The position numbers were made by a program, and so were the translations under genes. A model generated the notes under the pieces. The model saw only the letters and a program-made list of their open reading frames with translations. It did not search any database and was not told the DNA's origin. 64,000 bases of DNA from Psilocybe cubensis (Eukaryota), in the NCBI GenBank assembly GCA_017499595.2, contig CM039010.1, positions 2,108,001 through 2,172,000 on the forward strand, read 5' to 3'. How positions within the stretch are numbered: position 1 is the first letter of the stretch; each line of letters starts with the position of its first letter. This document shows, one piece after another, positions 11,917 to 54,773 of this stretch.

Positions 11917-14900
11917 GTTCTATAGCGAACTCCCTGTGACCTGGGGACCCGGTCACCCGCTTTGGGTCACCGGGAATGATTAGCTAAGCTTAGTCAGCCG
12001 CGGCTTTTGTTGACTTTCCCTTTCGTTTTCTTACTCGTCCCTTCACCTCCATTCCGCTCGCTGGGACCCGCCCCTCGATCGCTCGCCGCTCGTCACTCCC
12101 AGGTCACCAATGTTTGGCGCGACTTCGACCGCTCAGGTCACAAGAATTTCGACCCCCGACGCCGTCCTTTGCCTCAATAGGTAGCTTGAACGGCCGCCCT
12201 CGACTCGATCCGGATGGGATGGAGTCTCCTCGCTACTGCGCGTTGCGTCGCGTTGCTAGCAGGGCATCGTGTGGGTGAGAAGTAGCTATGTGCAAAAACG
12301 GTGAGTTGAGTGCAACAATTGCGTATTCTTCAACACTACTGAGATCATTTACACCATGGGGGATTCAACGTGGGGGGCAAATTTCCACACGATGCGCGTC
12401 GCGTCGCGTCGCATTGCACTTCTCTCTTGTGAGCAATTCATTTTCTTTTTCTATCTCTGCTACTACTCCTTTGAACGTTGACCCGCTGATTACCCAACCC
12501 CCTCGATAGGTAATCCCAATGTGCACCATGCGCAACATGGCGCCCTCCACGTTCCAAAAAGAGCTTACGCAGATTCCAATGTGATTCATGTCGCGTTGCG
12601 TTGTACTTCTCTCCCGCGCTGTGACAGTGGAGTGTTTGTCGGTACAGACTCGACGTCGAAGTCACTTTGCGTCGCACTTTTCTCCCTTGGAAGGTGAGCG
12701 GAACTCATTCGGTCCTTCTGTTCGTCTTGACATATATTTTCCTATTTGACGCTATTGTTCAGCACGGACAATGCTCTGCGTCCCACAGTGGTGTCTGATT
12801 GAGTTGGATTTAGGCTCGCGCTGGGAGTATACAAGTTTGTGAGTGCTCTTTTCTCTTTTCATTTCTGCCTGGCGGCGCACCAGGAATCCTTTAGCATGCA
12901 GGTTCTCTTCCATGCTTTCTTATTTGCTGACCAACCCCTCTCTGTTTTGTTTTCTGCCAAATGGATCCACGCAAGGCTCAATTGATCAATGCGGATGCGG
13001 AGTTGATGGATTTGACACACAAGGCGCGTATACCAATTTCTCTTATCGCTTCAACTTAACTGGATCCCCTCTTCTTCTCCCCCCTGCGGCGTGTTCCCCT
13101 CATTATCTTTACCCCGCCTGTTGTCACCCCCGCTCTGCCCGCCAGCAAACACCTGCAATGTCACATACAGTGCTGCAGTTAAGCATTAAAACCTAGGAAA
13201 CTGGTGAAGGAGATTTCTGCGGTAGACCGCGCTCTCTAGTCCCTTTATTCCTCCTCTTTATTTTTGAATCTCTGAGCCACATGACACATGGGCAATCCAG
13301 GAATTTTCAGGCATGGAAATACACTGGAATTGCCCATAGTTTCTCACCTGCTTCCTTTCCCACATCATTATACCCCGCCTACCTTGGTCTGCCGCACATA
13401 TTTTTCCGCTTAAATTGAGTTATACCCATGGCTTGGACAACTTTATGCCGCCGACTTTATGCGTGGCTACCATTTTTTACTGCTGTGCAAATCTACCCCG
13501 TGAGAGCGTGCACATTCCATTGTCATTATCTGTTTCTGTGTGATTTGCCCATCGAGTCTTGAGTTGCATATCAGACAGCATAGAATAATGTGGTAGTAAC
13601 TATACATAACACTTCGACTAAGTAGAGTAGCAGTAAATACAACTAAGTCAAGTCAATGATTGAGTATTCAGTTTGAGGCACTGAGAATAGATTGGTTTTC
13701 AAGATAGAGCCAGATGTCTTTTCATGATCAGAATCTTCTGTCAAGTCGATGACATTGGGATCAATCAACAGGGATTGAGTTGTTGAAGATATACCCTTCT
13801 GAATAGTCCGTTATTGATTAACATCAATTTGATATGTTCAAGGCCTACCATCATATGGTCCAAGGCTTTGAGAATTTGAAATACAGCAGTATTGGGTTGC
13901 AAGAGAGGTGCTTAAAATCAAAATTAAAGGATTAAAAGAAGAGTTTAAACGAGAGCAAGCTGCATAGCTGTCGTAGCATTAAGTATTCATTATTACTTTG
14001 TTATTTGAAACTTTACAATTATGATTGTCTGCGGCTACTCTGTCTGTGCATAAATATATGCAAACCATAAAAAATATACTAGAACCAGTCAAGTACATAA
14101 GTAAGAGCATTAAAAATACCAATCAATAGTTATAAGTTATCATGTTTGGCCTTTTTTAGAGGACGACGAGGAGCTACAGCTTTTTTCCGCTTGGTTGGTT
14201 GAGCTTCCACCTCCTTTTGCAAAGATGCAGCCTCCCGCTTTAATTTGATATGTTTTGTAAGGGCTGAAAGTCCCTTTAATTGTTTGTCTTGCTGCCCTAG
14301 AATGTCAAGTTCATCAATGATTGCAAGTGGAGAGACCTTGCGATTATGAGCTTCTGAGTCAATATACTCAGGTATTTCTCGGAATCGCTGCCAGAATTTG
14401 CGGTCCTATGCTTTCCGTAAGTACTTGAATCATATTAATATCAAATTTCCCTACTTTGGATGAAATTCCGCTTTGCCAACTTTTGAGATGCTTGCCCTCG
14501 GAATTGAGTGATCCAAAATGTCGTTCCACCTCACGTAGAGGTGGCTTGATAGCTGTCTGATTACCATCTGCATCATTTACCCCCTCACCAACACTCCAGC
14601 ATGCCCATTGATCATGAAGGTTATATTTATCGAGTGTTTTTGATGGCTTCCAGCAGTCCCATAAATGCTCGGGTTGCTTGATAAGAGCAAATACTTGGTT
14701 CCATGTCACAGATGTCTGTCCAAAGACTGGAGGCCAAAAGAATTGAGGCTGACCTGTATTTATAAATCTGTATTTAGCAAATGTATATATCATAAAAGCA
14801 ATGACTTACCCTGTTCTGTGAAAGCAGACGCACTTGGTAGCACTAAATCAACCTGTGAATGCTTCCGGCGGATGGTACATGTTGGGGTTTTTGGAGATCC

Positions 14901-17900
14901 ATTTGCAAATGCTCGGAACTCTCCATTTTCAGCCATATACACACCAGTGTCATCGTTTTCACTATTATAAAATGGTAGATTTGCCGCAGTTGTAGCACTT
15001 TCAAGTGTTTCATGAGCGACTGTTGTGAGCTGCAGCGCAGGAAGTGGCTTATGCACTGCAGCTGAAAAAAAAGCCAATAAGGATTAAAGATGATGTGAAG
15101 CAGCTTTGTGACGCACATGTTGATGCTGTAGCCATTCTAGATGAGTAGTGAGTCGCTGAATACCCCTTTGCTGGTGATAACACTTGAGTACGCTGCTCAA
15201 CTATCTTCTGAATTCGAGCAACTTCAGCTAATTGAACACTTTGTGATGCAAGTAAAGATCGAGTTTCTTCAAGGGCAAGTTGAAGAAGCTGATTCTGGAT
15301 CCGCTGGAGATCAACCCTACTTCCTGCATTCGCTTTCAACACAGAAAAATCACTTGGAAACTGGTGCTTCATCCAATTCTGGACGTCTTGTTGAGCAAAC
15401 GCTGGAAGCCGGAATAGTGCTGAGTCCGGTACTTCTTGAAAGATGGCAGCACCACACTAAAGCAGAATATTTAATACAATGCTGCATAGTTAATGAAACT
15501 CTTACCTGGAATAGATAGGGACGTAGCTCCATAACCATTGACCAGTAGTTAGCTGCTCCAGACAAATTTTGCCGTCCAACAACATCCGAATATATTGTCT
15601 CAGCCATTGGGCATACAAGATGGAGAAAAATCTCAGGGACATGGACATGACGCCAAATAGGGTCATACACCTCATGAGCTTTATATCCATGTGCACCGAG
15701 TACAGCCTATTATGTACACATCCGGTTAGTAAGTCTTTGAATAATAAAGAGAAAAGTTCACCTCTTTTGGAAGTGCTGGTGCATAGGTGTCATAATATGT
15801 CTCTCCTCGTACCCATCCCATTCGGGACGTTACAGAGGGATCAACACTAACTCAAGATAAGTTATTAAGCATTGAACTAAATATATTTGAGCTTACCCCA
15901 TACGCTCTTGATTATATCCAAGAATATGGCGTGGTAGATATGCTTTTAAATGTGATGTGAATTCAGCAAAAGAAAATGCCTTGACGTAGAGATTGTACAG
16001 GCTTTGCTCATGGTATGGCGTTGCATATGACTTCTTGCCATGTAGAACACGTACTTGTCGCCAGGTTTTATTGATTGACCAGTTAATATCCAATGCTGAT
16101 GTGATATCAATAACATCATGAAGGAAATGATGATAAAAAGCGAATGCTCCCAGTGGGCATTTAACTGGATCAAGGTGGGCAATGAATACACTATACACCG
16201 GATTAACTTTCTGAATAGTGTAGATAATATATCAGATAGGGACAAGTGAATTGAGAGCTTAAATTTACCGTTCTCATCCCTCTGCTAGCACCCGCCTTCT
16301 CTTCTCCTTGACATCCCAGAACACACGGAATGGCAGTCTCTTTATTTGGATGAAGAAAGACATATGGCTGCAGCTCAGCCAGTCGAAGCGCTCGGAAATC
16401 ATCTCCACGGTTTCCTGACGCATTTTGTGCAGTCCAGCTCAAATGACCATTGATAACCGAACGTACTAGAGAACATTGTCAAATTATTACCAAAAGATTC
16501 AAAAAGTTACTCACACTCTCGATGCATAAGAAAGCCTTTTCCAACACTGTTCATCTGCGCTTCTGTGATTCCGGAGAGAAATGTATTGGCAACAATGTCC
16601 GGTGCATCCTCTTCGGGTATGAGGCCTCTGATAATATGGAATTAGTAACTTATAATCAGTGTAGCAGATTAAAAAGAAACAGACTCTCGAGCCCGTCGAA
16701 GAGCTTCATTCATACGACCTTTAAGTGCATCCCAAACATGGACATTGGTTGCTGGGCGCTGCTGGGAAAGACTGGGGTCTTTGGCTTCTTGCTCTTTACG
16801 GATACGAAGTGCACCAAAATATAGTTTCTTAATGTGTGACTGAGAATCAATGTAAGTTTTATGCATGGCCTAATACACTGATATCCGGACTTACCGCGCC
16901 AATAAATGTACCAGGTATGTCAATACCTTTGCGTGTTCGCTTTGGTCTCTCGGCACAGTACCGAATATACAATAGTAAATGGTGGGCGTCAACAATTTCG
17001 TCTTTGATTTGACCTGTCTTCAAGGCATGGCCACAAAAGATCTGAAACGTATTCAAGTTAGATTGGAATATGTATACATAGACTTAGCCAATGACCTTCC
17101 AGTCTTTAATAACCGCATTTTGAGTCTTAACTCCACCCGCTCGTCGATTATTCTCTGCACGTCTCGTCTCCTCAAGCCGGATCCGAGTTTGAAATTTGGT
17201 GTAACTTTCGCCTGGAAAAGGTCCACCTTGCATTTGAGTCTCCAAGTCAAATTCACTGTCGTCTTCAAGGGCTGTGTGGGCTAGGAGCTCGTCGTTGATC
17301 TCAAGAACCTCTTGAAATTCGTCCTCAGGATCACTATCACTATCATCGTCGTACCCAAGAACCTCCTCAGCAGCAGCACCTTCAATACCAAATTCTTGAA
17401 TGAGGATTTCGTCATTATTTCCTCTCAATACGGACATTGATGTGCCAACATATTGCGAGCTAGAAGATGGTAGCTCAGCAACTTGAGCATCAGGAATTGA
17501 TTCCTCCGTGACAACTGGAGGAAACCTGTTAATGCAACCCAATAAAATACTAAGTATAATAGAATATAATTAAAATATGTGCCACATACCAGTAGTCCGT
17601 CAACATTGTTCGAAGATGCTCCAAATTTGCACTCTTAGGTGGTGCTAAATTAGCATCAATACATGCTTCGCGAAGTGGCTCTTTCCGTCGTATAGAAGCT
17701 AGCCTAGACATGTACTGAGCGCGGGATATATTGATAACACCATTGTTGTTGGTCGTGGGGATTGTAATTTCAGCATGTTGAGCTTGCTTAGAAGACTCGG
17801 TGCGAGATATGTGCAGTGCCGAGTTGTCATTGGCAACTAACAACCTTGAATTCAAAGCCTGAGTATCGTTTATTGGAGACTGCATTGGTTTACTCAGAGA

Positions 17901-18298
17901 TTTTTGAACGAGAGTGGGGGAAACTGTATATTCATAAGACATTTTATAGAGTACATTCTTTTATTATCTTGTACTAGTTGAGTTCAACGATGGGCCACTG
18001 GAGCGATGTAGAATGGACACTCACCAAAGGAAAATAACCGGTCATTTCACGTTGAATGGCACTCATGATTGACTCATGAGTTTGGCCAGTGTTGTGCGCA
18101 TATTGGCCAGTGCCACTGAAGGCCACAGAAATAAATCAATGGCGGCACATACCCACAGTGTCCGGTGCAGGTTGCGATGCTCACTGCATGCCTCAGTGAA
18201 AGTCACCCAGCTCTGTGACCCAGGGCCAAATTTGTGCGGCAGGTCACAAAATGTCTGTGACCTGCGCCCAAGGAATGCCACGGGGGTCTCCTTGTTCT
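11917..18298 (-). mobile_element. Crypton copy 1
   Basis: Bounded by ttacac|GTTCT|atagcg and ctcctt|GTTCT|atagcg. Confidence 0.9.
14130..17942 (-). CDS. Crypton tyrosine recombinase (Ndc10/CryptonF-like YR plus GCR1_C-like domain), copy 1, catalytic His changed to Tyr
   Basis: About 13 exons spliced by hand: ASGNRGDDFR (R), GEEKAG (K), HLDPVKCPLGAFAFY, KAYLPRH (HxxR altered), SRMGWVRGETYYDTY (W and Y; exon absent from the ORF track), QWACWSVG..IKPPLREVERHFG..W (GCR1_C-like), basic tail KRKK..RRPLKKAK, stop at 14130-14132. Confidence 0.85.
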
Positions 18299-21200
18299 AT
18301 AGCGAACTCCCTGTGACCTGGGGACCCGGTCACCCGCTTTGGGTCACCGGGAATGATTAGCTAAGCTTAGTCAGCCGCGGCTTTTGTTGACTTTCCCTTT
18401 CGTTTTCTTACTCGTCCCTTCACCTCCATTCCGCTCGCTGGGACCCGCCCCTCGATCGCTCGCCGCTCGTCACTCCCAGGTCACCAATGTTTGGCGCGAC
18501 TTCGACCGCTCAGGTCACAAGAATTTCGACCCCCGACGCCGTCCTTTGCCTCAATAGGTAGCTTGAACGGCCGCCCTCGACTCGATCCGGATGGGATGGA
18601 GTCTCCTCGCTACTGCGCGTTGCGTCGCGTTGCTAGCAGGGCATCGTGTGGGTGAGAAGTAGCTATGTGCAAAAACGGTGAGTTGAGTGCAACAATTGCG
18701 TATTCTTCAACACTACTGAGATCATTTACACCATGGGGGATTCAACGTGGGGGGCAAATTTCCACACGATGCGCGTCGCGTCGCGTCGCATTGCACTTCT
18801 CTCTTGTGAGCAATTCATTTTCTTTTTCTATCTCTGCTACTACTCCTTTGAACGTTGACCCGCTGATTACCCAACCCCCTCGATAGGTAATCCCAATGTG
18901 CACCATGCGCAACATGGCGCCCTCCACGTTCCAAAAAGAGCTTACGCAGATTCCAATGTGATTCATGTCGCGTTGCGTTGTACTTCTCTCCCGCGCTGTG
19001 ACAGTGGAGTGTTTGTCGGTACAGACTCGACGTCGAAGTCACTTTGCGTCGCACTTTTCTCCCTTGGAAGGTGAGCGGAACTCATTCGGTCCTTCTGTTC
19101 GTCTTGACATATATTTTCCTATTTGACGCTATTGTTCAGCACGGACAATGCTCTGCGTCCCACAGTGGTGTCTGATTGAGTTGGATTTAGGCTCGCGCTG
19201 GGAGTATACAAGTTTGTGAGTGCTCTTTTCTCTTTTCATTTCTGCCTGGCGGCGCACCAGGAATCCTTTAGCATGCAGGTTCTCTTCCATGCTTTCTTAT
19301 TTGCTGACCAACCCCTCTCTGTTTTGTTTTCTGCCAAATGGATCCACGCAAGGCTCAATTGATCAATGCGGATGCGGAGTTGATGGATTTGACACACAAG
19401 GCGCGTATACCAATTTCTCTTATCGCTTCAACTTAACTGGATCCCCTCTTCTTCTCCCCCCTGCGGCGTGTTCCCCTCATTATCTTTACTCCGCCTGTTG
19501 TCACCCCCGCTCTGCCCGCCAGCAAACACCTGCAATGTCACATACAGTGCTGCAGTTAAGCATTAAAACCTAGGAAACTGGTGAAGGAGATTTCTGCGGT
19601 AGACCGCGCTCTCTAGTCCCTTTATTCCTCCTCTTTATTTTTGAATCTCTGAGCCACATGACACATGGGCAATCCAGGAATTTTCAGGCATGGAAATACA
19701 CTGGAATTGCCCATAGTTTCTCACCTGCTTCCTTTCCCACATCATTATACCCCGCCTACCTTGGTCTGCCGCACATATTTTTCCGCTTAAATTGAGTTAT
19801 ACCCATGGCTTGGACAACTTTATGCCGCCGACTTTATGCGTGGCTACCATTTTTTACTGCTGTGCAAATCTACCCCGTGAGAGCGTGCACATTCCATTGT
19901 CATTATCTGTTTCTGTGTGATTTGCCCATCGAGTCTTGAGTTGCATATCAGACAGCATAGAATAATGTGGTAGTAACTATACATAACACTTCGACTAAGT
20001 AGAGTAGCAGTAAATACAACTAAGTCAAGTCAATGATTGAGTATTCAGTTTGAGGCACTGAGAATAGATTGGTTTTCAAGATAGAGCCAGATGTCTTTTC
20101 ATGATCAGAATCTTCTGTCAAGTCGATGACATTGGGATCAATCAACAGGGATTGAGTTGTTGAAGATATACCCTTCTGAATAGTCCGTTATTGATTAACA
20201 TCAATTTGATATGTTCAAGGCCTACCATCATATGGTCCAAGGCTTTGAGAATTTGAAATACAGCAGTATTGGGTTGCAAGAGAGGTGCTTAAAATCAAAA
20301 TTAAAGGATTAAAAGAAGAGTTTAAACGAGAGCAAGCTGCATAGCTGTCGTAGCATTAAGTATTCATTATTACTTTGTTATTTGAAACTTTACAATTATG
20401 ATTGTCTGCGGCTACTCTGTCTGTGCATAAATATATGCAAACCATAAAAAATATACTAGAACCAGTCAAGTACATAAGTAAGAGCATTAAAAATACCAAT
20501 CAATAGTTATAAGTTATCATGTTTGGCCTTTTTTAGAGGACGACGAGGAGCTACAGCTTTTTTCCGCTTGGTTGGTTGAGCTTCCACCTCCTTTTGCAAA
20601 GATGCAGCCTCCCGCTTTAATTTGATATGTTTTGTAAGGGCTGAAAGTCCCTTTAATTGTTTGTCTTGCTGCCCTAGAATGTCAAGTTCATCAATGATTG
20701 CAAGTGGAGAGACCTTGCGATTATGAGCTTCTGAGTCAATATACTCAGGTATTTCTCGGAATCGCTGCCAGAATTTGCGGTCCTATGCTTTCCGTAAGTA
20801 CTTGAATCATATTAATATCAAATTTCCCTACTTTGGATGAAATTCCGCTTCGCCAACTTTTGAGATGCTTGCCCTCGGAATTGAGTGATCCAAAATGTCG
20901 TTCCACCTCACGTAGAGGTGGCTTGATAGCTGTCTGATTACCATCTGCATCATTTACCCCCTCACCAACACTCCAGCATGCCCATTGATCATGAAGGTTA
21001 TATTTATCGAGTGTTTTTGATGGCTTCCAGCAGTCCCATAAATGCTCGGGTTGCTTGATAAGAGCAAATACTTGGTTCCATGTCACAGATGTCTGTCCAA
21101 AGACTGGAGGCCAAAAGAATTGAGGCTGACCTGTATTTATAAATCTGTATTTAGCAAATGTATATATCATAAAAGCAATGACTTACCCTGTTCTGTGAAA

Positions 21201-24200
21201 GCAGACGCACTTGGTAGCACTAAATCAACCTGTGAATGCTTCCGGCGGATGGTACATGTTGGGGTTTTTGGAGATCCATTTGCAAATGCTCGGAACTCTC
21301 CATTTTCAGCCATATACACACCAGTGTCATCGTTTTCACTATTATAAAATGGTAGATTTGCCGCAGTTGTAGCACTTTCAAGTGTTTCATGAGCGACTGT
21401 TGTGAGCTGCAGCGCAGGAAGTGGCTTATGCACTGCAGCTGAAAAAAAAAGCCAATAAGGATTAAAGATGATGTGAAGCAGCTTTGTGACGCACATGTTG
21501 ATGCTGTAGCCATTCTAGATGAGTAGTGAGTCGCTGAATACCCCTTTGCTGGTGATAACACTTGAGTACGCTGCTCAACTATCTTCTGAATTTGAGCAAC
21601 TTCAGCTAATTGAACACTTTGTGATGCAAGTAAAGATCAAGTTTCTTCAAGGGCAAGTTGAAGAAGCTGATTCTGGATCCGCTGGAGATCAACCCTACTT
21701 CCTGCATTCGCTTTCAACACAGAAAAATCACTTGGAAACTGGTGCTTCATCCAATTCTGGACGTCTTGTTGAGCAAACGCTGGAAGCCGGAATAGTGCTG
21801 AGTCCGGTACTTCTTGAAAGATGGCAGCACCACACTAAAGCAGAATATTTAATACAATGCTGCATAGTTAATGAAACTCTTACCTGGAATAGATAGGGAC
21901 GTAGCTCCATAACCATTGACCAGTAGTTAGCTGCTCCAGACAAATTTTGCCGTCCAACAACATCCGAATATATTGTCTCAGCCATTGGGCATACAAGATG
22001 GAGAAAAATCTCAGGGACATGGACATGACGCCAAATAGGGTCATACACCTCATGAGCTTTATATCCATGTGCACCGAGTACAGCCTATTATGTACACATC
22101 CGGTTAGTAAGTCTTTGAATAATAAAGAGAAAAGTTCACCTCTTTTGGAAGTGCTGGTGCATAGGTGTCATAATATGTCTCTCCTCGTACCCATCCCATT
22201 CGGGACGTTACAGAGGGATCAACACTAACTCAAGATAAGTTATTAAGCATTGAACTAAATATATTTGAGCTTACCCCATACGCTCTTGATTATATCCAAG
22301 AATATGGCGTGGTAGATGTGCTTTTAAATGTGATGTGAATTCAGCAAAAGAAAATGCCTTGACGTAGAGATTGTACAGGCTTTGCTCATGGTATGGCGTT
22401 GCATATGACTTCTTGCCATGTAGAACACGTACTTGTCGCCAGGTTTTATTGATTGACCAGTTAATATCCAATGCTGATGTGATATCAATAACATCATGAA
22501 GGAAATGATGATAAAAAGCGAATGCTCCCAGTGGGCATTTAACTGGATCAAGGTGGGCAATGAATACACTATACACCGGATTAACTTTCTGAATAGTGTA
22601 GATAATATATCAGATAGGGACAAGTGAATTGAGAGCTTAAATTTACCGTTCTCATCCCTCTGCTAGCACCCGCCTTCTCTTCTCCTTGACATCCCAGAAC
22701 ACACGGAATGGCAGTCTCTTTATTTGGATGAAGAAAGACATATGGCTGCAGCTCAGCCAGTCGAAGCGCTCGGAAATCATCTCCACGGTTTCCTGACGCA
22801 TTTTGTGCAGTCCAGCTCAAATGACCATTGATAACCGAACGTACTAGAGAACATTGTCAAATTATTACCAAAAGATTCAAAAAGTTACTCACACTCTCGA
22901 TGCATAAGAAAGCCTTTTCCAACACTGTTCATCTGCGCTTCTGTGATTCCGGAGAGAAATGTATTGGCAACAATGTCCGGTGCATCCTCTTCGGGTATGA
23001 GGCCTCTGATAATATGGAATTAGTAACTTATAATCAGTGTAGCAGATTAAAAAGAAACAGACTCTCGAGCCCGTCGAAGAGCTTCATTCATACGACCTTT
23101 AAGTGCATCCCAAACATGGACATTGGTTGCTGGGCGCTGCTGGGAAAGACTGGGGTCTTTGGCTTCTTGCTCTTTACGGATACGAAGTGCACCAAAATAT
23201 AGTTTCTTAATGTGTGACTGAGAATCAATGTAAGTTTTATGCATGGCCTAATACACTGATATCCGGACTTACCGCGCCAATAAATGTACCAGGTATGTCA
23301 ATACCTTTGCGTGTTCGCTTTGGTCTCTCGGCACAGTACCGAATATACAATAGTAAATGGTGGGCGTCAACAATTTCGTCTTTGATTTGACCTGTCTTCA
23401 AGGCATGGCCACAAAAGATCTGAAACGTATTCAAGTTAGATTGGAATATGTATACATAGACTTAGCCAATGACCTTCCAGTCTTTAATAACCGCATTTTG
23501 AGTCTTAACTCCACCCGCTCGTCGATTATTCTCTGCACGTCTCGTCTCCTCAAGCCGGATCCGAGTTTGAAATTTGGTGTAACTTTCGCCTGGAAAAGGT
23601 CCACCTTGCATTTGAGTCTCCAAGTCAAATTCACTGTCGTCTTCAAGGGCTGTGTGGGCTAGGAGCTCGTCGTTGATCTCAAGAACCTCTTGAAATTCGT
23701 CCTCAGGATCACTATCACTATCATCGTCGTACCCAAGAACCTCCTCAGCAGCAGCACCTTCAATACCAAATTCTTGAATGAGGATTTCGTCATTATTTCC
23801 TCTCAATACGGACATTGATGTGCCAACATATTGCGAGCTAGAAGATGGTAGCTCAGCAACTTGAGCATCAGGAATTGATTCCTCCGTGACAACTGGAGGA
23901 AACCTGTTAATGCAACCCAATAAAATACTAAGTATAATAGAATATAATTAAAATATGTGCCACATACCAGTAGTCCGTCAACATTGTTCGAAGATGCTCC
24001 AAATTTGCACTCTTAGGTGGTGCTAAATTAGCATCAATACATGCTTCGCGAAGTGGCTCTTTCCGTCGTATAGAAGCTAGCCTAGACATGTACTGAGCGC
24101 GGGATATATTGATAACACCATTGTTGTTGGTCGTGGGGATTGTAATTTCAGCATGTTGAGCTTGCTTAGAAGACTCGGTGCGAGATATGTGCAGTGCCGA

Positions 24201-24676
24201 GTTGTCATTGGCAACTAACAACCTTGAATTCAAAGCCTGAGTATCGTTTATTGGAGACTGCATTGGTTTACTCAGAGATTTTTGAACGAGAGTGGGGGAA
24301 ACTGTATATTCATAAGACATTTTATAGAGTACATTCTTTTATTATCTTGTACTAGTTGAGTTCAACGATGGGCCACTGGAGCGATGTAGAATGGACACTC
24401 ACCAAAGGAAAATAACCGGTCATTTCACGTTGAATGGCACTCATGATTGACTCATGAGTTTGGCCAGTGTTGTGCGCATATTGGCCAGTGCCACTGAAGG
24501 CCACAGAAATAAATCAATGGCGGCACATACCCACAGTGTCCGGTGCAGGTTGCGATGCTCACTGCATGCCTCAGTGAAAGTCACCCAGCTCTGTGACCCA
24601 GGGCCAAATTTGTGCGGCAGGTCACAAAATGTCTGTGACCTGCGCCCAAGGAATGCCACGGGGGTCTCCTTGTTCT
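18294..24676 (-). mobile_element. Crypton copy 2
   Basis: Both ends are the internal junction ctcctt|GTTCT|atagcg. Confidence 0.9.
20507..24320 (-). pseudogene. Crypton tyrosine recombinase copy 2 with premature stop
   Basis: Same exons as copies 1 and 3 with intact HLPRH. G>A at 21639 turns CGA into TGA (ETRSLL to ET*), removing the GCR1_C-like C-terminus. Confidence 0.8.
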
Positions 24677-27600
24677 ATAGCGAACTCCCTGTGACCTGGG
24701 GACCCGGTCACCCGCTTTGGGTCACCGGGAATGATTAGCTAAGCTTAGTCAGCCGCGGCTTTTGTTGACTTTCCCTTTCGTTTTCTTACTCGTCCCTTCA
24801 CCTCCATTCCGCTCGCTGGGACCCGCCCCTCGATCGCTCGCCGCTCGTCACTCCCAGGTCACCAATGTTTGGCGCGACTTCGACCGCTCAGGTCACAAGA
24901 ATTTCGACCCCCGACGCCGTCCTTTGCCTCAATAGGTAGCTTGAACGGCCGCCCTCGACTCGATCCGGATGGGATGGAGTCTCCTCGCTACTGCGCGTTG
25001 CGTCGCGTTGCTAGCAGGGCATCGTGTGGGTGAGAAGTAGCTATGTGCAAAAACGGTGAGTTGAGTGCAACAATTGCGTATTCTTCAACACTACTGAGAT
25101 CATTTACACCATGGGGGATTCAACGTGGGGGGCAAATTTCCACACGATGCGCGTCGCGTCGCGTCGCATTGCACTTCTCTCTTGTGAGCAATTCATTTTC
25201 TTTTTCTATCTCTGCTACTACTCCTTTGAACGTTGACCCGCTGATTACCCAACCCCCTCGATAGGTAATCCCAATGTGCACCATGCGCAACATGGCGCCC
25301 TCCACGTTCCAAAAAGAGCTTACGCAGATTCCAATGTGATTCATGTCGCGTTGCGTTGTACTTCTCTCCCGCGCTGTGACAGTGGAGTGTTTGTCGGTAC
25401 AGACTCGACGTCGAAGTCACTTTGCGTCGCACTTTTCTCCCTTGGAAGGTGAGCGGAACTCATTCGGTCCTTCTGTTCGTCTTGACATATATTTTCCTAT
25501 TTGACGCTATTGTTCAGCACGGACAATGCTCTGCGTCCCACAGTGGCGTCTGATTGAGTTGGATTTAGGCTCGCGCTGGGAGTATACAAGTTTGTGAGTG
25601 CTCTTTTCTCTTTTCATTTCTGCCTGGCGGCGCACCAGGAATCCTTTAGCATGCAGGTTCTCTTCCATGCTTTCTTATTTGCTGACCAACCCCTCTCTGT
25701 TTTGTTTTCTGCCAAATGGATCCACGCAAGGCTCAATTGATCAATGCGGATGCGGAGTTGATGGATTTGACACACAAGGCGCGTATACCAATTTCTCTTA
25801 TCGCTTCAACTTAACTGGATCCCCTCTTCTTCTCCCCCCTGCGGCGTGTTCCCCTCATTATCTTTACCCCGCCTGTTGTCACCCCCGCTCTGCCCGCCAG
25901 CAAACACCTGCAATGTCACATACAGTGCTGCAGTTAAGCATTAAAACCTAGGAAACTGGTGAAGGAGATTTCTGCGGTAGACCGCGCTCTCTAGTCCCTT
26001 TATTCCTCCTCTTTATTTTTGAATCTCTGAGCCACATGACACATGGGCAATCCAGGAATTTTCAGGCATGGAAATACACTGGAATTGCCCATAGTTTCTC
26101 ACCTGCTTCCTTTCCCACATCATTATACCCCGCCTACCTTGGTCTGCCGCACATATTTTTCCGCTTAAATTGAGTTATACCCATGGCTTGGACAACTTTA
26201 TGCCGCCGACTTTATGCGTGGCTACCATTTTTTACTGCTGTGCAAATCTACCCCGTGAGAGCGTGCACATTCCATTGTCATTATCTGTTTCTGTGTGATT
26301 TGCCCATCGAGTCTTGAGTTGCATATCAGACAGCATAGAATAATGTGGTAGTAACTATACATAACACTTCGACTAAGTAGAGTAGCAGTAAATACAACTA
26401 AGTCAAGTCAATGATTGAGTATTCAGTTTGAGGCACTGAGAATAGATTGGTTTTCAAGATAGAGCCAGATGTCTTTTCATGATCAGAATCTTCTGTCAAG
26501 TCGATGACATTGGGATCAATCAACAGGGATTGAGTTGTTGAAGATATACCCTTCTGAATAGTCCGTTATTGATTAACATCAATTTGATATGTTCAAGGCC
26601 TACCATCATATGGTCCAAGGCTTTGAGAATTTGAAATACAGCAGTATTGGGTTGCAAGAGAGGTGCTTAAAATCAAAATTAAAGGATTAAAAGAAGAGTT
26701 TAAACGAGAGCAAGCTGCATAGCTGTCGTAGCATTAAGTATTCATTATTACTTTGTTATTTGAAACTTTACAATTATGATTGTCTGCGGCTACTCTGTCT
26801 GTGCATAAATATATGCAAACCATAAAAAATATACTAGAACCAGTCAAGTACATAAGTAAGAGCATTAAAAATACCAATCAATAGTTATAAGTTATCATGT
26901 TTGGCCTTTTTTAGAGGACGACGAGGAGCTACAGCTTTTTTCCGCTTGGTTGGTTGAGCTTCCACCTCCTTTTGCAAAGATGCAGCCTCCCGCTTTAATT
27001 TGATATGTTTTGTAAGGGCTGAAAGTCCCTTTAATTGTTTGTCTTGCTGCCCTAGAATGTCAAGTTCATCAATGATTGCAAGTGGAGAGACCTTGCGATT
27101 ATGAGCTTCTGAGTCAATATACTCAGGTATTTCTCGGAATCGCTGCCAGAATTTGCGGTCCTATGCTTTCCGTAAGTACTTGAATCATATTAATATCAAA
27201 TTTCCCTACTTTGGATGAAATTCCGCTTCGCCAACTTTTGAGATGCTTGCCCTCGGAATTGAGTGATCCAAAATGTCGTTCCACCTCACGTAGAGGTGGC
27301 TTGATAGCTGTCTGATTACCATCTGCATCATTTACCCCCTCACCAACACTCCAGCATGCCCATTGATCATGAAGGTTATATTTATCGAGTGTTTTTGATG
27401 GCTTCCAGCAGTCCCATAAATGCTCGGGTTGCTTGATAAGAGCAAATACTTGGTTCCATGTCACAGATGTCTGTCCAAAGACTGGAGGCCAAAAGAATTG
27501 AGGCTGACCTGTATTTATAAATCTGTATTTAGCAAATGTATATATCATAAAAGCAATGACTTACCCTGTTCTGTGAAAGCAGACGCACTTGGTAGCACTA

Positions 27601-30600
27601 AATCAACCTGTGAATGCTTCCGGCGGATGGTACATGTTGGGGTTTTTGGAGATCCATTTGCAAATGCTCGGAACTCTCCATTTTCAGCCATATACACACC
27701 AGTGTCATCGTTTTCACTATTATAAAATGGTAGATTTGCCGCAGTTGTAGCACTTTCAAGTGTTTCATGAGCGACTGTTGTGAGCTGCAGCGCAGGAAGT
27801 GGCTTATGCACTGCAGCTGAAAAAAAAAGCCAATAAGGATTAAAGATGATGTGAAGCAGCTTTGTGACGCACATGTTGATGCTGTAGCCATTCTAGATGA
27901 GTAGTGAGTCGCTGAATACCCCTTTGCTGGTGATAACACTTGAGTACGCTGCTCAACTATCTTCTGAATTCGAGCAACTTCAGCTAATTGAACACTTTGT
28001 GATGCAAGTAAAGATCGAGTTTCTTCAAGGGCAAGTTGAAGAAGCTGATTCTGGATCCGCTGGAGATCAACCCTACTTCCTGCATTCGCTTTCAACACAG
28101 AAAAATCACTTGGAAACTGGTGCTTCATCCAATTCTGGACGTCTTGTTGAGCAAACGCTGGAAGCCGGAATAGTGCTGAGTCCGGTACTTCTTGAAAGAT
28201 GGCAGCACCACACTAAAGCAGAATATTTAATACAATGCTGCATAGTTAATGAAACTCTTACCTGGAATAGATAGGGACGTAGCTCCATAACCATTGACCA
28301 GTAGTTAGCTGCTCCAGACAAATTTTGCCGTCCAACAACATCCGAATATATTGTCTCAGCCATTGGGCATACAAGATGGAGAAAAATCTCAGGGACATGG
28401 ACATGACGCCAAATAGGGTCATACACCTCATGAGCTTTATATCCATGTGCACCGAGTACAGCCTATTATGTACACATCCGGTTAGTAAGTCTTTGAATAA
28501 TAAAGAGAAAAGTTCACCTCTTTTGGAAGTGCTGGTGCATAGGTGTCATAATATGTCTCTCCTCGTACCCATCCCATTCGGGACGTTACAGAGGGATCAA
28601 CACTAACTCAAGATAAGTTATTAAGCATTGAACTAAATATATTTGAGCTTACCCCATACGCTCTTGATTATATCCAAGAATATGGCGTGGTAGATGTGCT
28701 TTTAAATGTGATGTGAATTCAGCAAAAGAAAATGCCTTGACGTAGAGATTGTACAGGCTTTGCTCATGGTATGGCGTTGCATATGACTTCTTGCCATGTA
28801 GAACACGTACTTGTCGCCAGGTTTTATTGATTGACCAGTTAATATCCAATGCTGATGTGATATCAATAACATCATGAAGGAAATGATGATAAAAAGCGAA
28901 TGCTCCCAGTGGGCATTTAACTGGATCAAGGTGGGCAATGAATACACTATACACCGGATTAACTTTCTGAATAGTGTAGATAATATATCAGATAGGGACA
29001 AGTGAATTGAGAGCTTAAATTTACCGTTCTCATCCCTCTGCTAGCACCCGCCTTCTCTTCTCCTTGACATCCCAGAACACACGGAATGGCAGTCTCTTTA
29101 TTTGGATGAAGAAAGACATATGGCTGCAGCTCAGCCAGTCGAAGCGCTCGGAAATCATCTCCACGGTTTCCTGACGCATTTTGTGCAGTCCAGCTCAAAT
29201 GACCATTGATAACCGAACGTACTAGAGAACATTGTCAAATTATTACCAAAAGATTCAAAAAGTTACTCACACTCTCGATGCATAAGAAAGCCTTTTCCAA
29301 CACTGTTCATCTGCGCTTCTGTGATTCCGGAGAGAAATGTATTGGCAACAATGTCCGGTGCATCCTCTTCGGGTATGAGGCCTCTGATAATATGGAATTA
29401 GTAACTTATAATCAGTGTAGCAGATTAAAAAGAAACAGACTCTCGAGCCCGTCGAAGAGCTTCATTCATACGACCTTTAAGTGCATCCCAAACATGGACA
29501 TTGGTTGCTGGGCGCTGCTGGGAAAGACTGGGGTCTTTGGCTTCTTGCTCTTTACGGATACGAAGTGCACCAAAATATAGTTTCTTAATGTGTGACTGAG
29601 AATCAATGTAAGTTTTATGCATGGCCTAATACACTGATATCCGGACTTACCGCGCCAATAAATGTACCAGGTATGTCAATACCTTTGCGTGTTCGCTTTG
29701 GTCTCTCGGCACAGTACCGAATATACAATAGTAAATGGTGGGCGTCAACAATTTCGTCTTTGATTTGACCTGTCTTCAAGGCATGGCCACAAAAGATCTG
29801 AAACGTATTCAAGTTAGATTGGAATATGTATACATAGACTTAGCCAATGACCTTCCAGTCTTTAATAACCGCATTTTGAGTCTTAACTCCACCCGCTCGT
29901 CGATTATTCTCTGCACGTCTCGTCTCCTCAAGCCGGATCCGAGTTTGAAATTTGGTGTAACTTTCGCCTGGAAAAGGTCCACCTTGCATTTGAGTCTCCA
30001 AGTCAAATTCACTGTCGTCTTCAAGGGCTGTGTGGGCTAGGAGCTCGTCGTTGATCTCAAGAACCTCTTGAAATTCGTCCTCAGGATCACTATCACTATC
30101 ATCGTCGTACCCAAGAACCTCCTCAGCAGCAGCACCTTCAATACCAAATTCTTGAATGAGGATTTCGTCATTATTTCCTCTCAATACGGACATTGATGTG
30201 CCAACATATTGCGAGCTAGAAGATGGTAGCTCAGCAACTTGAGCATCAGGAATTGATTCCTCCGTGACAACTGGAGGAAACCTGTTAATGCAACCCAATA
30301 AAATACTAAGTATAATAGAATATAATTAAAATATGTGCCACATACCAGTAGTCCGTCAACATTGTTCGAAGATGCTCCAAATTTGCACTCTTAGGTGGTG
30401 CTAAATTAGCATCAATACATGCTTCGCGAAGTGGCTCTTTCCGTCGTATAGAAGCTAGCCTAGACATGTACTGAGCGCGGGATATATTGATAACACCATT
30501 GTTGTTGGTCGTGGGGATTGTAATTTCAGCATGTTGAGCTTGCTTAGAAGACTCAGTGCGAGATATGTGCAGTGCCGAGTTGTCATTGGCAACTAACAAC

Positions 30601-31054
30601 CTTGAATTCAAAGCCTGAGTATCGTTTATTGGAGACTGCATTGGTTTACTCAGAGATTTTTGAACGAGAGTGGGGGAAACTGTATATTCATAAGACATTT
30701 TATAGAGTACATTCTTTTATTATCTTGTACTAGTTGAGTTCAACGATGGGCCACTGGAGCGATGTAGAATGGACACTCACCAAAGGAAAATAACCGGTCA
30801 TTTCACGTTGAATGGCACTCATGATTGACTCATGAGTTTGGCCAGTGTTGTGCGCATATTGGCCAGTGCCACTGAAGGCCACAGAAATAAATCAATGGCG
30901 GCACATACCCACAGTGTCCGGTGCAGGTTGCGATGCTCACTGCATGCCTCAGTGAAAGTCACCCAGCTCTGTGACCCAGGGCCAAATTTGTGCGGCAGGT
31001 CACAAAATGTCTGTGACCTGCGCCCAAGGAATGCCACGGGGGTCTCCTTGTTCT
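24672..31054 (-). mobile_element. Crypton copy 3
   Basis: Right boundary ctcctt|GTTCT|ctcaac returns to unique sequence. Confidence 0.9.
26885..30698 (-). CDS. Crypton tyrosine recombinase copy 3, apparently intact
   Basis: NRGDD, EEKAG, KAHLPRH, MGW, YYDTY and PPLREVERHFG..WR all present; no stop seen in the predicted exons. Confidence 0.85.
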
Positions 31055-42456: not shown

Positions 42457-44715
42457 TGAAGTCTTCATACCCTGGCAGTTGCCAGGTGTATGGGAAGTAT
42501 CTACGCTGGCAACTGCCAGGTGCCACAATTGAAGTCTTCAGCTGAGCGATGGTCAATACGACCAAACAAATCCCAAACACGGTGAGCGGGGCCCCGTCGG
42601 GGGCGAAAAATGGCTTTGCTCGTTGTTCGGGCGGCCGTTTGGGGCGGGAAAAAATACGTCGGGGTCGGCTCGATGAGCAGACCGCATCGGCGTTGTTTGC
42701 GCGGCGTTATGGACAGCGGGCGGGGTGGATGGGGCGGGGCGACGTTGGATGACGCTCGCATTATTTCTGGGTGATTTCCCGATTCGGGTAATAGATCATT
42801 GATGTACTGATGTAATCAAATTGATCATCACCATCAATCCATCACGCCGCGGCCATCGATTCAGCCAGCGCATGCACCGTGCGCGCGCGCGCGTTGAAAA
42901 TGCGCACTGCTCGTTGGCCTGTAGGTCTTTCGCGCAGACGCTTTGTTATGAGACATAATATTACTAATAGAGGGACGTCCTGCGACGCCGTATGCTCACC
43001 AAATCAAACAAATGAGATATCTAAAGGATTACAATGCATTATGCAACACATAGTATCTTTACATGTTTCTACATAGTTGATGGACATGGCACATATTTTG
43101 AGTGACTATGGATTAGAAAATATAGTAGTAAGATGATCAATACATGAGTAATTTGGTAATACTTGTCAAATACAGTTCATGTAATGGCTTTTGATGAATG
43201 TTGCTACTGTTATATCCACTGGCACTTGTTGTGCCCTTCCTGTGCCACTCTGGATGCTATATTTGTTTGTATGTTGTTAAGAAAGTTTAACAATTATTGC
43301 TATATATGTAGATTCTTATGCACGACTGTAAAGGATCGGAAAGCTTGCTCGAGAACACTTTATTATCTCAATATCTAAAAATAGCCACATTTCCGGACGC
43401 TCTTTCCACGTCAATTCCAACAGTAAATATTCAATTGGGAAACATCTTCATGTTGAAGTTGAAAATAAAATTATTGCTAAAATAATGTAAAATCATTCTA
43501 TATCCAAATATACCGTGAAAAAAAAATGGATGCCTCAAAAGGTGTGCTTCAGGCTCGGAAGGTCGACCTCAGAAACTACTAAATCCATAAATTCATCCAA
43601 CAAGATCACCTTGTAGGATATTACAACACACGGTATAAAGTGTATATATTTCAATTCATTTTTAAACCAGCTACATGTTGGTATCTTTTTTTTGATGTAA
43701 TGTTCAGAATTGCGTTCAGAATTGCAAAATTACATAGAAAATTTTGAATCCGAGATCACCAAATTAGATTCCGGCACTGTATATGTGCTAAATATTGAGT
43801 GAGACAGCAAATATAACACTGTTTTTGTCTATACTTCCAAGATGAATACTCTGTAGAATAGGTTGGTTACTCATATGCCCTTTTATTTGATCTCGAGTTC
43901 ATCAGAATGTGAAAATAATCAGTGACCCCTTCTTTTTTGCATCATTGATACTGGCAAAGTAGCAGCAATCCCATTTTACATTAGATATTCTTACTATATA
44001 TTGCTATATATGATCACATAAACGAGATACAGGCCTCTAGTGACATTAGTAGCCTATAGGTTGAGCTAAATAAGTTGTCTACTCTGTGCTTCTGCCAGTC
44101 AAGGTATCATATCACTGTTTTCCCAAGCCTACTCAAGGTAATTACCACAGCAGACTGACTGAACTCTACAAATGTGGGTCAATATTACCACTCACCACTG
44201 TCGCATGCCTGTATAGGTAACCTCTATGCTTTATCTGCGCTGCAAGAGCGCCGGGATAACGAGCAGTGCGCGTTTTCAATGCGCGCGCGTGCACGGTGCA
44301 TGCGCTGGCTGAATCGATGGCCGCGGCGTGATGGGATTGATGGTGATGATCAATTGATCACATCAATACATCAATGATCTGCAACCCGAATCGGGAAATC
44401 ACCCAGAAATAATGCGAGCGTCATCCAACGTCGCCCCGCCCCATCCACCCCGCCCGCTGTCCATAACGTCGCGCAAACAATGCCGACGTGGTCTGCTCAT
44501 CGAACCGACCCCGACGCATTTTTTCCCGCCCCAAACGGCCGCCCGAACAACGAGCTACGCCATTTTTCGCGCCCGGCGGGGCCCCGCTCACCGTGTTTGG
44601 GATTTGTTTGGTTGTATTGACCATCGCCCAGCTGAAGACTTCAAATGTGGCACCTGGCAGTTGCCAGCGTAGATACTTCCCATACACCTGGCAACTGCCA
44701 GGTATGAAGGCTTCA
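42457..44715. mobile_element. Non-autonomous DNA transposon / foldback-like element with ~460-bp terminal inverted repeats
   Basis: 42457-~42915 is the reverse complement, with scattered mismatches, of ~44257-44715 (termini TGAAG(T/C)CTTCATAC). Mirror ORFs at 42501-42761(-) and 44412-44672(+). AT-rich interior has no recognisable transposase. Confidence 0.85.
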
Positions 44716-48227: not shown

Positions 48228-48534
48228 ATAAGATATATTTCGCTCGGATTAAATTGCACTTTTTCGGAATGTGCTAAATTTGAGTAGAAGTGAAAGGAGG
48301 AGAAGGTGACAGAATATCCGAGTTATCTGATATTCCGTGGGTGCGTAGGGCTTTGGCGGGTGGTCAGGAAAGACCAAGTGAAGGTCACGAGAAATGACCG
48401 GATTCGAAGTGAGACACGCAAAGCGCGAGTCGTGAGGAAACGAAAGCGAGGAGAAAGGTTTAGCCGCCAAAGGCCTGAGCGCTTGGATCGAACCACGTGG
48501 AAATCGCAAACGAGAACCAACGGTGGCAGTACCA
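48228..48534 (-). repeat. Split direct repeat B2 (307 bp)
   Basis: Appears identical to 48873-49179. Confidence 0.9.
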
Positions 48535-48572
48535 AACACTGGAAAAAGGAAAGAAAAGGGAGAGGAGGGTGG

Positions 48573-48874
48573 GCTCAAAAGAAAAATCGGAGGCGAGTCG
48601 AGGGGAAAGACGAGATGAGACTGGACGAGTCTGAAGACGAGCCGGTAGGGGAGAAAAATACGAGGACAACTTTTATTATATAGATGTACAGAAATTAAAG
48701 AATCAACAGAAGAGACTGGGGAGGTATGACAGGTGAGACCTGACAAGTGTCAGGTTCAGGAACCGGAAGACGTTAAGACGATCATTAAAACAGAGAAGAC
48801 AAAACTCAAATAAGCAATCGTCATCCTCGCTGCTATCTTATCCATAGATGAGTGCTACGCACTCATCGTGGAAT
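48573..48874 (-). repeat. Split direct repeat A2 (302 bp)
   Basis: Appears identical to 54472-54773. Confidence 0.9.
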
Positions 48875-49179
48875 AAGATATATTTCGCTCGGATTAAATT
48901 GCACTTTTTCGGAATGTGCTAAATTTGAGTAGAAGTGAAAGGAGGAGAAGGTGACAGAATATCCGAGTTATCTGATATTCCGTGGGTGCGTAGGGCTTTG
49001 GCGGGTGGTCAGGAAAGACCAAGTGAAGGTCACGAGAAATGACCGGATTCGAAGTGAGACACGCAAAGCGCGAGTCGTGAGGAAACGAAAGCGAGGAGAA
49101 AGGTTTAGCCGCCAAAGGCCTGAGCGCTTGGATCGAACCACGTGGAAATCGCAAACGAGAACCAACGGTGGCAGTACCA
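48873..49179 (-). repeat. Split direct repeat B1
   Basis: Appears identical to 48228-48534. Confidence 0.9.
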
Positions 49180-49403
49180 GACGGAGCGCAAGCTCACCAC
49201 CAACGCCGTGGGTTCTCGGGCCACAAGGAAGACCCAAGCAGAGCTGAGCACCAATGTTAGAAGAGGACGGACGTTGATATCAAACCAGATGTCAAGAAAA
49301 TAAGCATGATTTAATTGAGTGAACACAGGATAAGTTTATACCGGAATAAAGTAGCGAGAAGGGAAATATTGCAGCAGAGAGTAGGTAAATAAAGTACAAT
49401 GGT

Positions 49404-53040: not shown

Positions 53041-53041
53041 A

Positions 53042-54466: not shown

Positions 54467-54471
54467 GGCGA

Positions 54472-54773
54472 GCTCAAAAGAAAAATCGGAGGCGAGTCGA
54501 GGGGAAAGACGAGATGAGACTGGACGAGTCTGAAGACGAGCCGGTAGGGGAGAAAAATACGAGGACAACTTTTATTATATAGATGTACAGAAATTAAAGA
54601 ATCAACAGAAGAGACTGGGGAGGTATGACAGGTGAGACCTGACAAGTGTCAGGTTCAGGAACCGGAAGACGTTAAGACGATCATTAAAACAGAGAAGACA
54701 AAACTCAAATAAGCAATCGTCATCCTCGCTGCTATCTTATCCATAGATGAGTGCTACGCACTCATCGTGGAAT
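54472..54773 (-). repeat. Split direct repeat A1
   Basis: Appears identical to 48573-48874. Confidence 0.9.

Follow-up and report, generated by a model that had tools for sequence, protein, structure and literature searches.

The DNA analyzed here is a 64,000-nt stretch of the Psilocybe cubensis genome (positions 2,108,001 to 2,172,000 of the forward strand of contig CM039010.1, assembly GCA_017499595.2), further called the window, and its central feature is a tandem array of a probable CryptonF-type DNA transposon that encodes a predicted tyrosine recombinase. A unit of 6377 base pairs (bp) is repeated three times head-to-tail, so that three units and one extra GTTCT make up the 19138 bp between 11917 and 31054 (positions in the window, here and below). 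Self-comparison with megablast aligns 11917–24676 with 18294–31054 at 99.914% identity over 12761 bp; it is in this comparison that the three tandem copies presupposed by the preliminary description of the locus, which had spoken of a copy 3, are found.

To model the gene on the minus strand of the third copy, a dynamic programme that allows GT..AG introns was run from the ATG at 30698. Thirteen exons (30698–26885) are joined into a single frame of 1053 amino acids (aa) with the stop codon at 26885–26887, the same start and end as in the preliminary description, which had expected about 13 exons. The 12 introns measure 49–64 nt and are GT..AG without exception. Under heavy splice weighting the programme also proposed a fourteenth exon, 26833–26774, which was discarded as an artefact of the splice-score weighting.

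Over all 1053 aa the spliced product is identical, letter for letter, to a public protein, “hypothetical protein JR316_0013358 [Psilocybe cubensis]” (P0001 below), and a search with exon 7 alone gave a 100% match. The gene model of P0001 was made independently of the present analysis, and all catalytic residues are in frame there; the protein cluster to which it belongs has seven member sequences. There is no long open reading frame (ORF) in 26885–30698, and the peptides from which the gene had been pieced together are all present in the minus-strand list of stop-to-stop ORFs (Table 1). The gene is thus hidden, as had been claimed, solely from a prokaryote-style ORF list, since the public annotation already contains it.

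Table 1. Coordinates of the array, its repeats and motifs, the recombinase gene of copy 3, and related reading frames.
Feature	Position in the window	Strand	Content
Array	11917..31054	-	three copies of the 6377-bp unit
Copy 1	11917..18298	-	H556Y (first His of HLPRH), R956Q, 1-base deletion in intron 10
Copy 2	18294..24676	-	R731* (CGA -> TGA), R746Q
Copy 3	24672..31054	-	sole copy with intact gene; product identical to P0001
Substitutions between copies (copy 3 coordinates)	25547, 25868, 27229, 27971, 28017, 28696, 30555
GTTCT	11917-11921, 18294-18298, 24672-24676, 31050-31054		both array ends and both junctions
Eight GGTCAC/GTGACC motifs (mostly CAGGTCACA)	24593..24896		304 bp spanning a unit junction
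Perfect 10-7-10 inverted repeat GCAGGTCACA-AAATGTC-TGTGACCTGC	30995..31021		right end of copy 3; equivalent in copy 2 at 24617-24643
Non-coding stretch, ~2.2 kb	24677..26884		GC about 50%; GCGTCGC-type subrepeats
Exon 1	30346..30698	-	aa 1-117 + 2 nt; disordered N-terminus, then SAP-like helical module aa 74-118
Exon 2	29852..30281	-	acidic tract and beginning of N-terminal (core-binding type) recombinase domain
Exon 3	29651..29797	-	splice model, equal to P0001
Exon 4	29441..29595	-	splice model, equal to P0001
Exon 5	29271..29383	-	splice model, equal to P0001
Exon 6	29025..29221	-	R419 (GNRGDD), K456 (EEKAG)
Exon 7	28653..28966	-	H556, R559 (HLPRH); NDC10_II E 1.8e-6 from the exon alone
Exon 8, 85 nt	28518..28602	-	W581 and likely nucleophile Y591
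Exon 9	28262..28462	-	end of catalytic domain and Ndc10-like extension
Exon 10	27873..28212	-	long helix / coiled-coil linker aa 688-754
Exon 11	27565..27816	-	linker, low model confidence
Exon 12	27210..27508	-	GCR1_C-like domain, first part (aa ~906-959)
Exon 13	26885..27160	-	remainder of GCR1_C-like domain, helices, basic NLS-like tail, stop codon
ORF with RRKEPLREAC..ANLEHLRTML	30306-30716	-	stop-to-stop ORF list
ORF with acidic tract	29840-30325	-	stop-to-stop ORF list
ORF with GNRGDD and EEKAG	28959-29234	-	stop-to-stop ORF list
ORF with HLPRH	28649-28987	-	stop-to-stop ORF list
ORF with VDPSVTSRMGWVRGETYYDTYAPALPKE	28482-28607	-	stop-to-stop ORF list
55-codon ORF with VIDLTED and terminal IIDLT	26398..26565	-	downstream of recombinase stop; perhaps what remains of the final exon of an XPG-type nuclease gene carried by relatives

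The spliced protein matches the Pfam domain NDC10_II at aa 418–690 (E 8.2e-11; 42 bits vs. a gathering cut-off of 26.3), and exon 7 alone already gives a match to this domain (Table 1). AlphaFold2 was run on an alignment with 47 relatives (A1), to which the counts of relatives below refer; the resulting model has a mean predicted local distance difference test score (pLDDT) of 73.1, with blocks in aa 221–700 mostly at 80–97. All four Foldseek matches to the PDB at E ≤ 0.001 are Ndc10 (4aco at 3.0e-7), and Flp and Cre come next. VIA-align likewise has Ndc10/Cbf2 of the budding-yeast kinetochore (PDB 4aco, 3sqi, 6gyp) as the best fold match (4aco, Z 19.3, root-mean-square deviation 3.8, 281 residues aligned), and the region past the catalytic domain is common to both proteins, residues 384–706 of the model lying on residues 182–513 of Ndc10. 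Flp (1m6x_C, Z 14.1, deviation 4.2, 235 residues aligned) and Cre (3crx_A, Z 10.7, 276 residues aligned over both domains) have the same two-domain fold and the same order of catalytic residues at similar spacing; still, identity to them is just 10–13%, and the window protein is far larger, with additional SAP-like, coiled-coil and GCR1_C-like parts. XerA and XerH are aligned at Z 10.8–11.1, the lambda Int core at Z 9.4, and topoisomerase IB at about Z 7. Judged by the model, the fold is that of a two-domain tyrosine recombinase, closest to the Ndc10 form. Structure prediction and a profile search had been named in the preliminary description as checks of the recombinase, and both bear it out, the latter through NDC10_II; GCR1_C and Phage_integrase (PF00589) have no match in the protein itself.

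The residues of the predicted catalytic set are kept by most relatives, R419 (GNRGDD) by 42 of 47, K456 (EEKAG) by 45, H556 and R559 (HLPRH) by 44 and 43, respectively, and W581 by all 47. They had been proposed from the exon peptides, with the tryptophan and the tyrosine on a small exon, and the model indeed places them in one frame, on exons 6, 7 and the 85-nt exon 8. Y591 is present in 43 of 47 relatives, the other four rows being gapped there; Y587 is kept in 40, and Y588 is variable. In the distant relative P0163 (hhalign E 1.7e-43) the W581 position is occupied by His, Y591 by Tyr, and Y587 by Arg; because P0163 has the tyrosine at 591 but not at 587, and Y588 varies, we consider Y591, ten residues past the W/H position, the likely nucleophile. 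The spacing in the window protein is R–37–K–100–HxxR–22–W–10–Y. The catalytic residues of Cre are R173, K201, H289, R292, W315, and Y324. Some Cre alignments (e.g., 1kbu_A and 1crx_A) lay model residues 227/228–583 on Cre 19/20–317, and the 3crx_A alignment stops at residue 582; with ungapped ends of the former, W581 would sit at Cre position 315. Taken together, sequence and model support a tyrosine recombinase with a full predicted catalytic set.

Upstream of the core, the model contains a short module of three helices (aa 74–82, 87–96, and 107–118; pLDDT about 90), followed by the acidic tract that the preliminary description had reported and that is found on exon 2. It had also suggested a SAP-like N-terminus, of which the helical module stands, and the SAP domain of a sister lineage aligns with it, but the protein itself has no Pfam SAP. 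The Pfam SAP model (PF02037) does not match P0001, and at E ≤ 1 it matches none of the 47 relatives. In P0163 of Panaeolus cyanescens, a member of the sister lineage, Pfam SAP is found (E 4.6e-7), and MAFFT lays it on the N-terminal module with L, C, N–L, and L-x-x-L columns in common. Compared by fold on its own, the module reaches Z 5.5 at most; SAP domains (Ku70, PIAS1, MKL1, SLX4, FAN1) and LEM domains score Z 3–4.5, and Foldseek yields nothing at E ≤ 0.001. A SAP-like nature of the module (SAP region at aa ~85–118) is therefore plausible but unproven on both the alignment and the model.

The sister lineage (Panaeolus, Lactarius, Ramaria, Suillus, Laccaria, and others) carries Pfam SAP before NDC10_II in 11 of 25 hits, according to precomputed Pfam domains (P0163, P0178, P0181, P0183, P0186, P0187, P0189, P0190, P0193, P0197, and P0199). 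These Agaricomycetes proteins share with the window protein the homologous core and an N-terminal helix-loop-helix at the same place; they differ in that their module passes Pfam SAP and in the His at the W581 position, as seen in the P0163 alignment.

The C-terminal part contains a long helix at aa 688–754 of the model, which answers to the coiled-coil-like linker described earlier, and ends with a basic tail, KRKKAVAPRRPLKKAK, resembling a nuclear localization signal (NLS), which is also present as described. The intervening pattern, given as W..W..G....PPL.E.E..FG...WR, is recovered loosely, as WACWSVGE...KPPLREVERHFGS...SWR at aa 909–956, the blocks being further apart than the dots imply. 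The GCR1_C domain is matched by 20 of 47 relatives at E ≤ 0.01 and by 28 at E ≤ 1 (best 1.7e-6), and in three of them (P0101, P0103, and P0132) above the gathering cut-off. The GCR1_C hits of five relatives, mapped onto P0001, fall at aa 906–999, where the Psilocybe/Panaeolus sub-lineage carries an insertion. In an ESM Atlas search with aa 850–1035 the best values are 0.81–0.83, under the level that counts, and a GCR1_C cluster ranks third, weakly, at 0.81. As relatives match at the equivalent place, the designation GCR1_C-like is fair at the family level, though the domain goes undetected in the protein itself. The order of parts along the protein is the SAP-like module, the acidic tract, a two-domain core of the Ndc10/Flp type, the long helix, the GCR1_C-like domain, and the basic tail.

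At the ends of the array, exactly 5 bp, GTTCT, are common to the junction of the left flank with the element and that of the element with the right flank, and beyond them the flank and element sequences differ. GTTCT is thus a candidate crossover or target motif. Self-comparison reveals no terminal inverted repeats and no long terminal direct repeats, and a Pfam scan of the exon ORFs and of ten ORFs from the remaining 2.2 kb finds NDC10_II only, with no reverse transcriptase and no DDE domain. A DIRS/Ngaro retrotransposon was considered and rejected, as the unit has no reverse transcriptase domain and no split or inverted terminal repeats. For the 2.2-kb remainder, we see no Pfam domain in its ten largest ORFs, no Rfam family, and no detectable coding capacity. 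Short degenerate subrepeats GCGTCGC(G/A)TTGC..ACTTCTCTC occur there four times, at 24982–25443, spaced by 156–192 bp.

The junction between units is surrounded by the eight GGTCAC/GTGACC motifs of Table 1, five of which read CAGGTCAC, and the unit has none in its remaining ~6.07 kb; in the whole window there are 40 such motifs vs. 25 expected. Three sites lie at the right end of copy 3 (30971–31018), and the 10-7-10 inverted repeat is formed by two of the GGTCAC-type motifs. Their position suggests that the element ends may be bound at these motifs. Unlike the sites of Flp and Cre, no site of the 13-8-13 type is present around GTTCT.

Between the three copies there are seven substitutions and, in intron 10, an indel of one base. 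All seven substitutions are transitions, five of them at CpG, and copy 3 has one private change, which is synonymous. A tree of the form ((copy 1, copy 2), copy 3) would account for all eight differences without homoplasy, and the predominance of CpG transitions suggests methylation and decay of the array. The earlier proposal of copy 3 as the potentially active one agrees with these data: H556Y falls in the HxxR motif of copy 1, copy 2 is interrupted by R731*, and copy 3 alone is undamaged. From its intact coding sequence, copy 3 is predicted to be the candidate, potentially active element.

Additional data come from DNA read contigs of two sequencing runs. Both runs belong to a single study, possibly the one from which the assembly was made. 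In each of them the head-to-tail junction is spanned by a contig, and at precisely 24671/24672 there are branches into other flanks; these flanks may belong to a related element with the same first ~46 bp. The unit-to-flank depth ratios of 98/44 and 35/12 are not read as copy numbers here. Two further runs, presumed to be RNA, gave a single contig on the element, touching 24671–24709 only. A more abundant contig in run X1 (depth 259 vs. 98 for the unit) follows 24674–24717, that is, the first ~46 bp, with two mismatches, then diverges, and it terminates at the element terminus. Its sequence suggests that a related family, perhaps a non-autonomous one, shares the left end of the element. Moreover, the 31-mer at 26052–26082 is present in read contigs at ~3.5 times the unit depth, with branches on both sides, and a contig of run X1 joins 26082 to 27123, so that 1040 bp, the 3' end of the gene among them, are missing from it; both observations point to deleted or chimeric relatives, probably elsewhere in the genome. 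A paralogue with 91% identity is located on another contig, and Agaricales genomes have many paralogues each, some of them partial.

CryptonF elements combine a tyrosine recombinase with GCR1_C and have terminal direct repeats of 4–6 bp that are taken as recombination substrates, according to PMC3212892, which also derives Ndc10 and Gcr1 from such elements; the background given in the preliminary description agrees with this source. An active element, CryptonF-1_cRei, has the 5-bp terminal repeat CACCG and the target CAYCG, according to PMC9977147. GTTCT at the junctions and ends of the array corresponds to this layout. By gene content and ends, the locus is probably a CryptonF-type DNA transposon in three head-to-tail units, each with a 13-exon gene for a 1053-aa tyrosine recombinase. 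Like Crypton-Cn1 of Cryptococcus and CryptonF-1_cRei of Chlamydomonas, it has one intron-containing gene, in which a GCR1_C-like domain comes after the recombinase, lacks terminal inverted and long terminal repeats, and carries a short direct repeat at both ends (5 bp here). On the other hand, its unit of 6.4 kb is longer and includes ~2.2 kb that are non-coding, its protein has a SAP-like N-terminal module, and it forms a precise three-copy array; GCR1_C is under detection in the copy 3 protein and some relatives are fused to an XPG_I nuclease.

For such an element the following cycle may be proposed. The recombinase would bind the GGTCAC-rich sequences on either side of the element junction, and exchange between the terminal GTTCT repeats, with Y591 as the nucleophile, would excise the element as a circle. 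The circle would re-insert at a GTTCT target. Because each copy ends in GTTCT beside its own binding sites, a circle could also enter the GTTCT end of a resident copy, and a head-to-tail array would result.

Several observations weigh against the assignment to an active CryptonF. GCR1_C has no match in P0001 at E ≤ 0.1, nor at E ≤ 10 on the last 191 aa, and Phage_integrase, absent from P0001, is matched by just 5 of 47 relatives at E ≤ 1 (best 0.037). The catalytic set was placed by order and conservation. Searched with a profile of the 47 relatives, PDB sequences yielded no recombinase and no Ndc10, so the link to solved recombinases is carried by the fold and the Pfam model; the matches returned by this profile, TBP poly-Q, MAK16 and ANP32B, are low-complexity only and were dismissed. 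Two of the three copies are damaged (H556Y; R731*), and the CpG-transition pattern suggests silencing. The inverted repeat is located 29 bp from GTTCT rather than around it, and, as 25 of 300 shuffles yield one, it is not significant alone. No second insertion of the identical element was seen at another locus, the whole genome being outside the comparison. Finally, the unit might be a defective derivative, since some relatives carry an XPG-type nuclease that it lacks.

Were the array or the differences between its copies an artefact of assembly or base calling, the statement that only copy 3 is intact would be biologically meaningless. Methylated CpG can induce miscalls in long reads. The copy differences are taken from one assembly, and those at CpG (five of seven substitutions) could be such miscalls; short-read contigs, moreover, carry the majority alleles only. 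Yet a junction-bridging contig is present in two runs and the protein cluster of P0001 has its seven members, and we regard an artefact as improbable. A real Crypton whose array was built by the host, through unequal crossing-over or replication slippage, with the junction GTTCT simply an inherited terminal repeat, deserves more attention and is nonetheless unlikely. It is consistent with the copy tree, whose last step could be an unequal exchange, and passages of PMC9977147 on Chlamydomonas do not mention tandem arrays; but the first duplication would have needed an exchange on 5 bp of identity only, the array comprises integral units plus exactly one GTTCT, and its boundary is the very point at which read contigs branch to other flanks. 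Domestication as a host gene family of Ndc10/Gcr1-like DNA-binding proteins, with no transposon at all, would explain why Ndc10 is the top structural and Pfam match, and GCR1_C-type domains do occur in yeast transcription factors (PMC3212892). However, the catalytic residues reported there as lost in Ndc10/Cbf2 and Gcr1 (“data not shown” in that source) are all retained in the window protein, R, K, HxxR, W and Y alike, and in 42–47 of 47 relatives. Unlike Ndc10, the window gene is multicopy, and the element in which it lies has defined ends. The tandem copies, three in number and nearly identical, include two that are disabled; together with the many partial paralogues per genome, this makes domestication highly improbable.

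The remaining explanation concerns the nuclease: the unit may be a non-autonomous derivative of a larger, two-gene element with a recombinase and an XPG/FEN-type nuclease, immobile without the nuclease of its relatives. XPG_I follows the GCR1_C region in at least nine relatives from at least six species, many of them in Agaricales (precomputed or scanned Pfam; P0004, P0007, P0008, P0009, P0021, P0027, P0041, P0045, and P0132). Eight of 13 long relatives checked, a set that includes XPG_I carriers, end with [VI][VI]DL[TS], which resembles a SUMO-interaction motif, and in the six-frame translation of the window a motif of this type is found only in the 55-codon ORF downstream of the recombinase stop. 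Against such a derivative, 42–43 of the 47 relatives in A1 have no XPG_I in the gene model, the fusions are perhaps merged gene models, and tblastn with three fused relatives finds no XPG nuclease in the window at E ≤ 1e-3, a relaxed search of the unit giving eight residues at E 2.5. To our knowledge, tyrosine recombinases require no separate nuclease. We think it rather doubtful that the unit is a defective derivative. A broader proposal combines it with the assigned cycle: a distinct Crypton lineage of Agaricales would have a SAP-type N-terminal module and, in full-length elements, an XPG/FEN nuclease with a [VI]IDLT tail, and the window element would be a nuclease-less derivative retaining the terminal exon only and targeting its own GTTCT beside GGTCAC sites, which would produce arrays with copy 3 active. 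As a whole this proposal is speculative, and the odds are against it; our literature search found no paper joining Crypton with XPG.

Elsewhere in the window, 100%-identical direct repeats A (48228–48534), B (48573–48874), A (48873–49179) and, further on, B (54472–54773) are arranged within 48228–54773 around long minus-strand ORFs of 631, 408, 678 and 509 codons, in a strongly purine-skewed region. The A–B–A...B arrangement we take to be the split-direct-repeat layout of tyrosine-recombinase retrotransposons of the Ngaro/DIRS type; the ORFs of this region have no Pfam match at E ≤ 1e-3, and a weak one to Phage_int_SAM_1 at E 0.15. An inverted repeat of 460 bp, with arms at 42457–42915 and 44258–44715, is 94.6% identical, and the arms are about 1.3 kb apart. 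Of 17 flanking ORFs scanned, the plus-strand one at 62145–63209, with a PQ-loop repeat (E 8.3e-10), is the only one to look like an ordinary host gene.

The element is of an expected, known kind, CryptonF, and its protein has already been annotated as hypothetical. Our literature search yielded no relevant paper on Crypton and Psilocybe, the one hit being a list of fungal names, and none that treats transposable elements of the Crypton type in Agaricomycetes. Among the classes of eukaryotic DNA transposons, Cryptons have been studied least. Not until mutation-accumulation lines of Chlamydomonas were analyzed was activity first seen, and the mode of transposition is called complex there (PMC9977147). 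The locus described here unites a coding-intact recombinase, two natural mutants (H556Y and a truncation), an exact GTTCT junction and empty site, and a compact cluster of candidate motifs, which together make a test with the cDNA and a reporter straightforward in a non-pathogenic fungus. Moreover, it bears on the origin of Ndc10 and Gcr1 from such elements.

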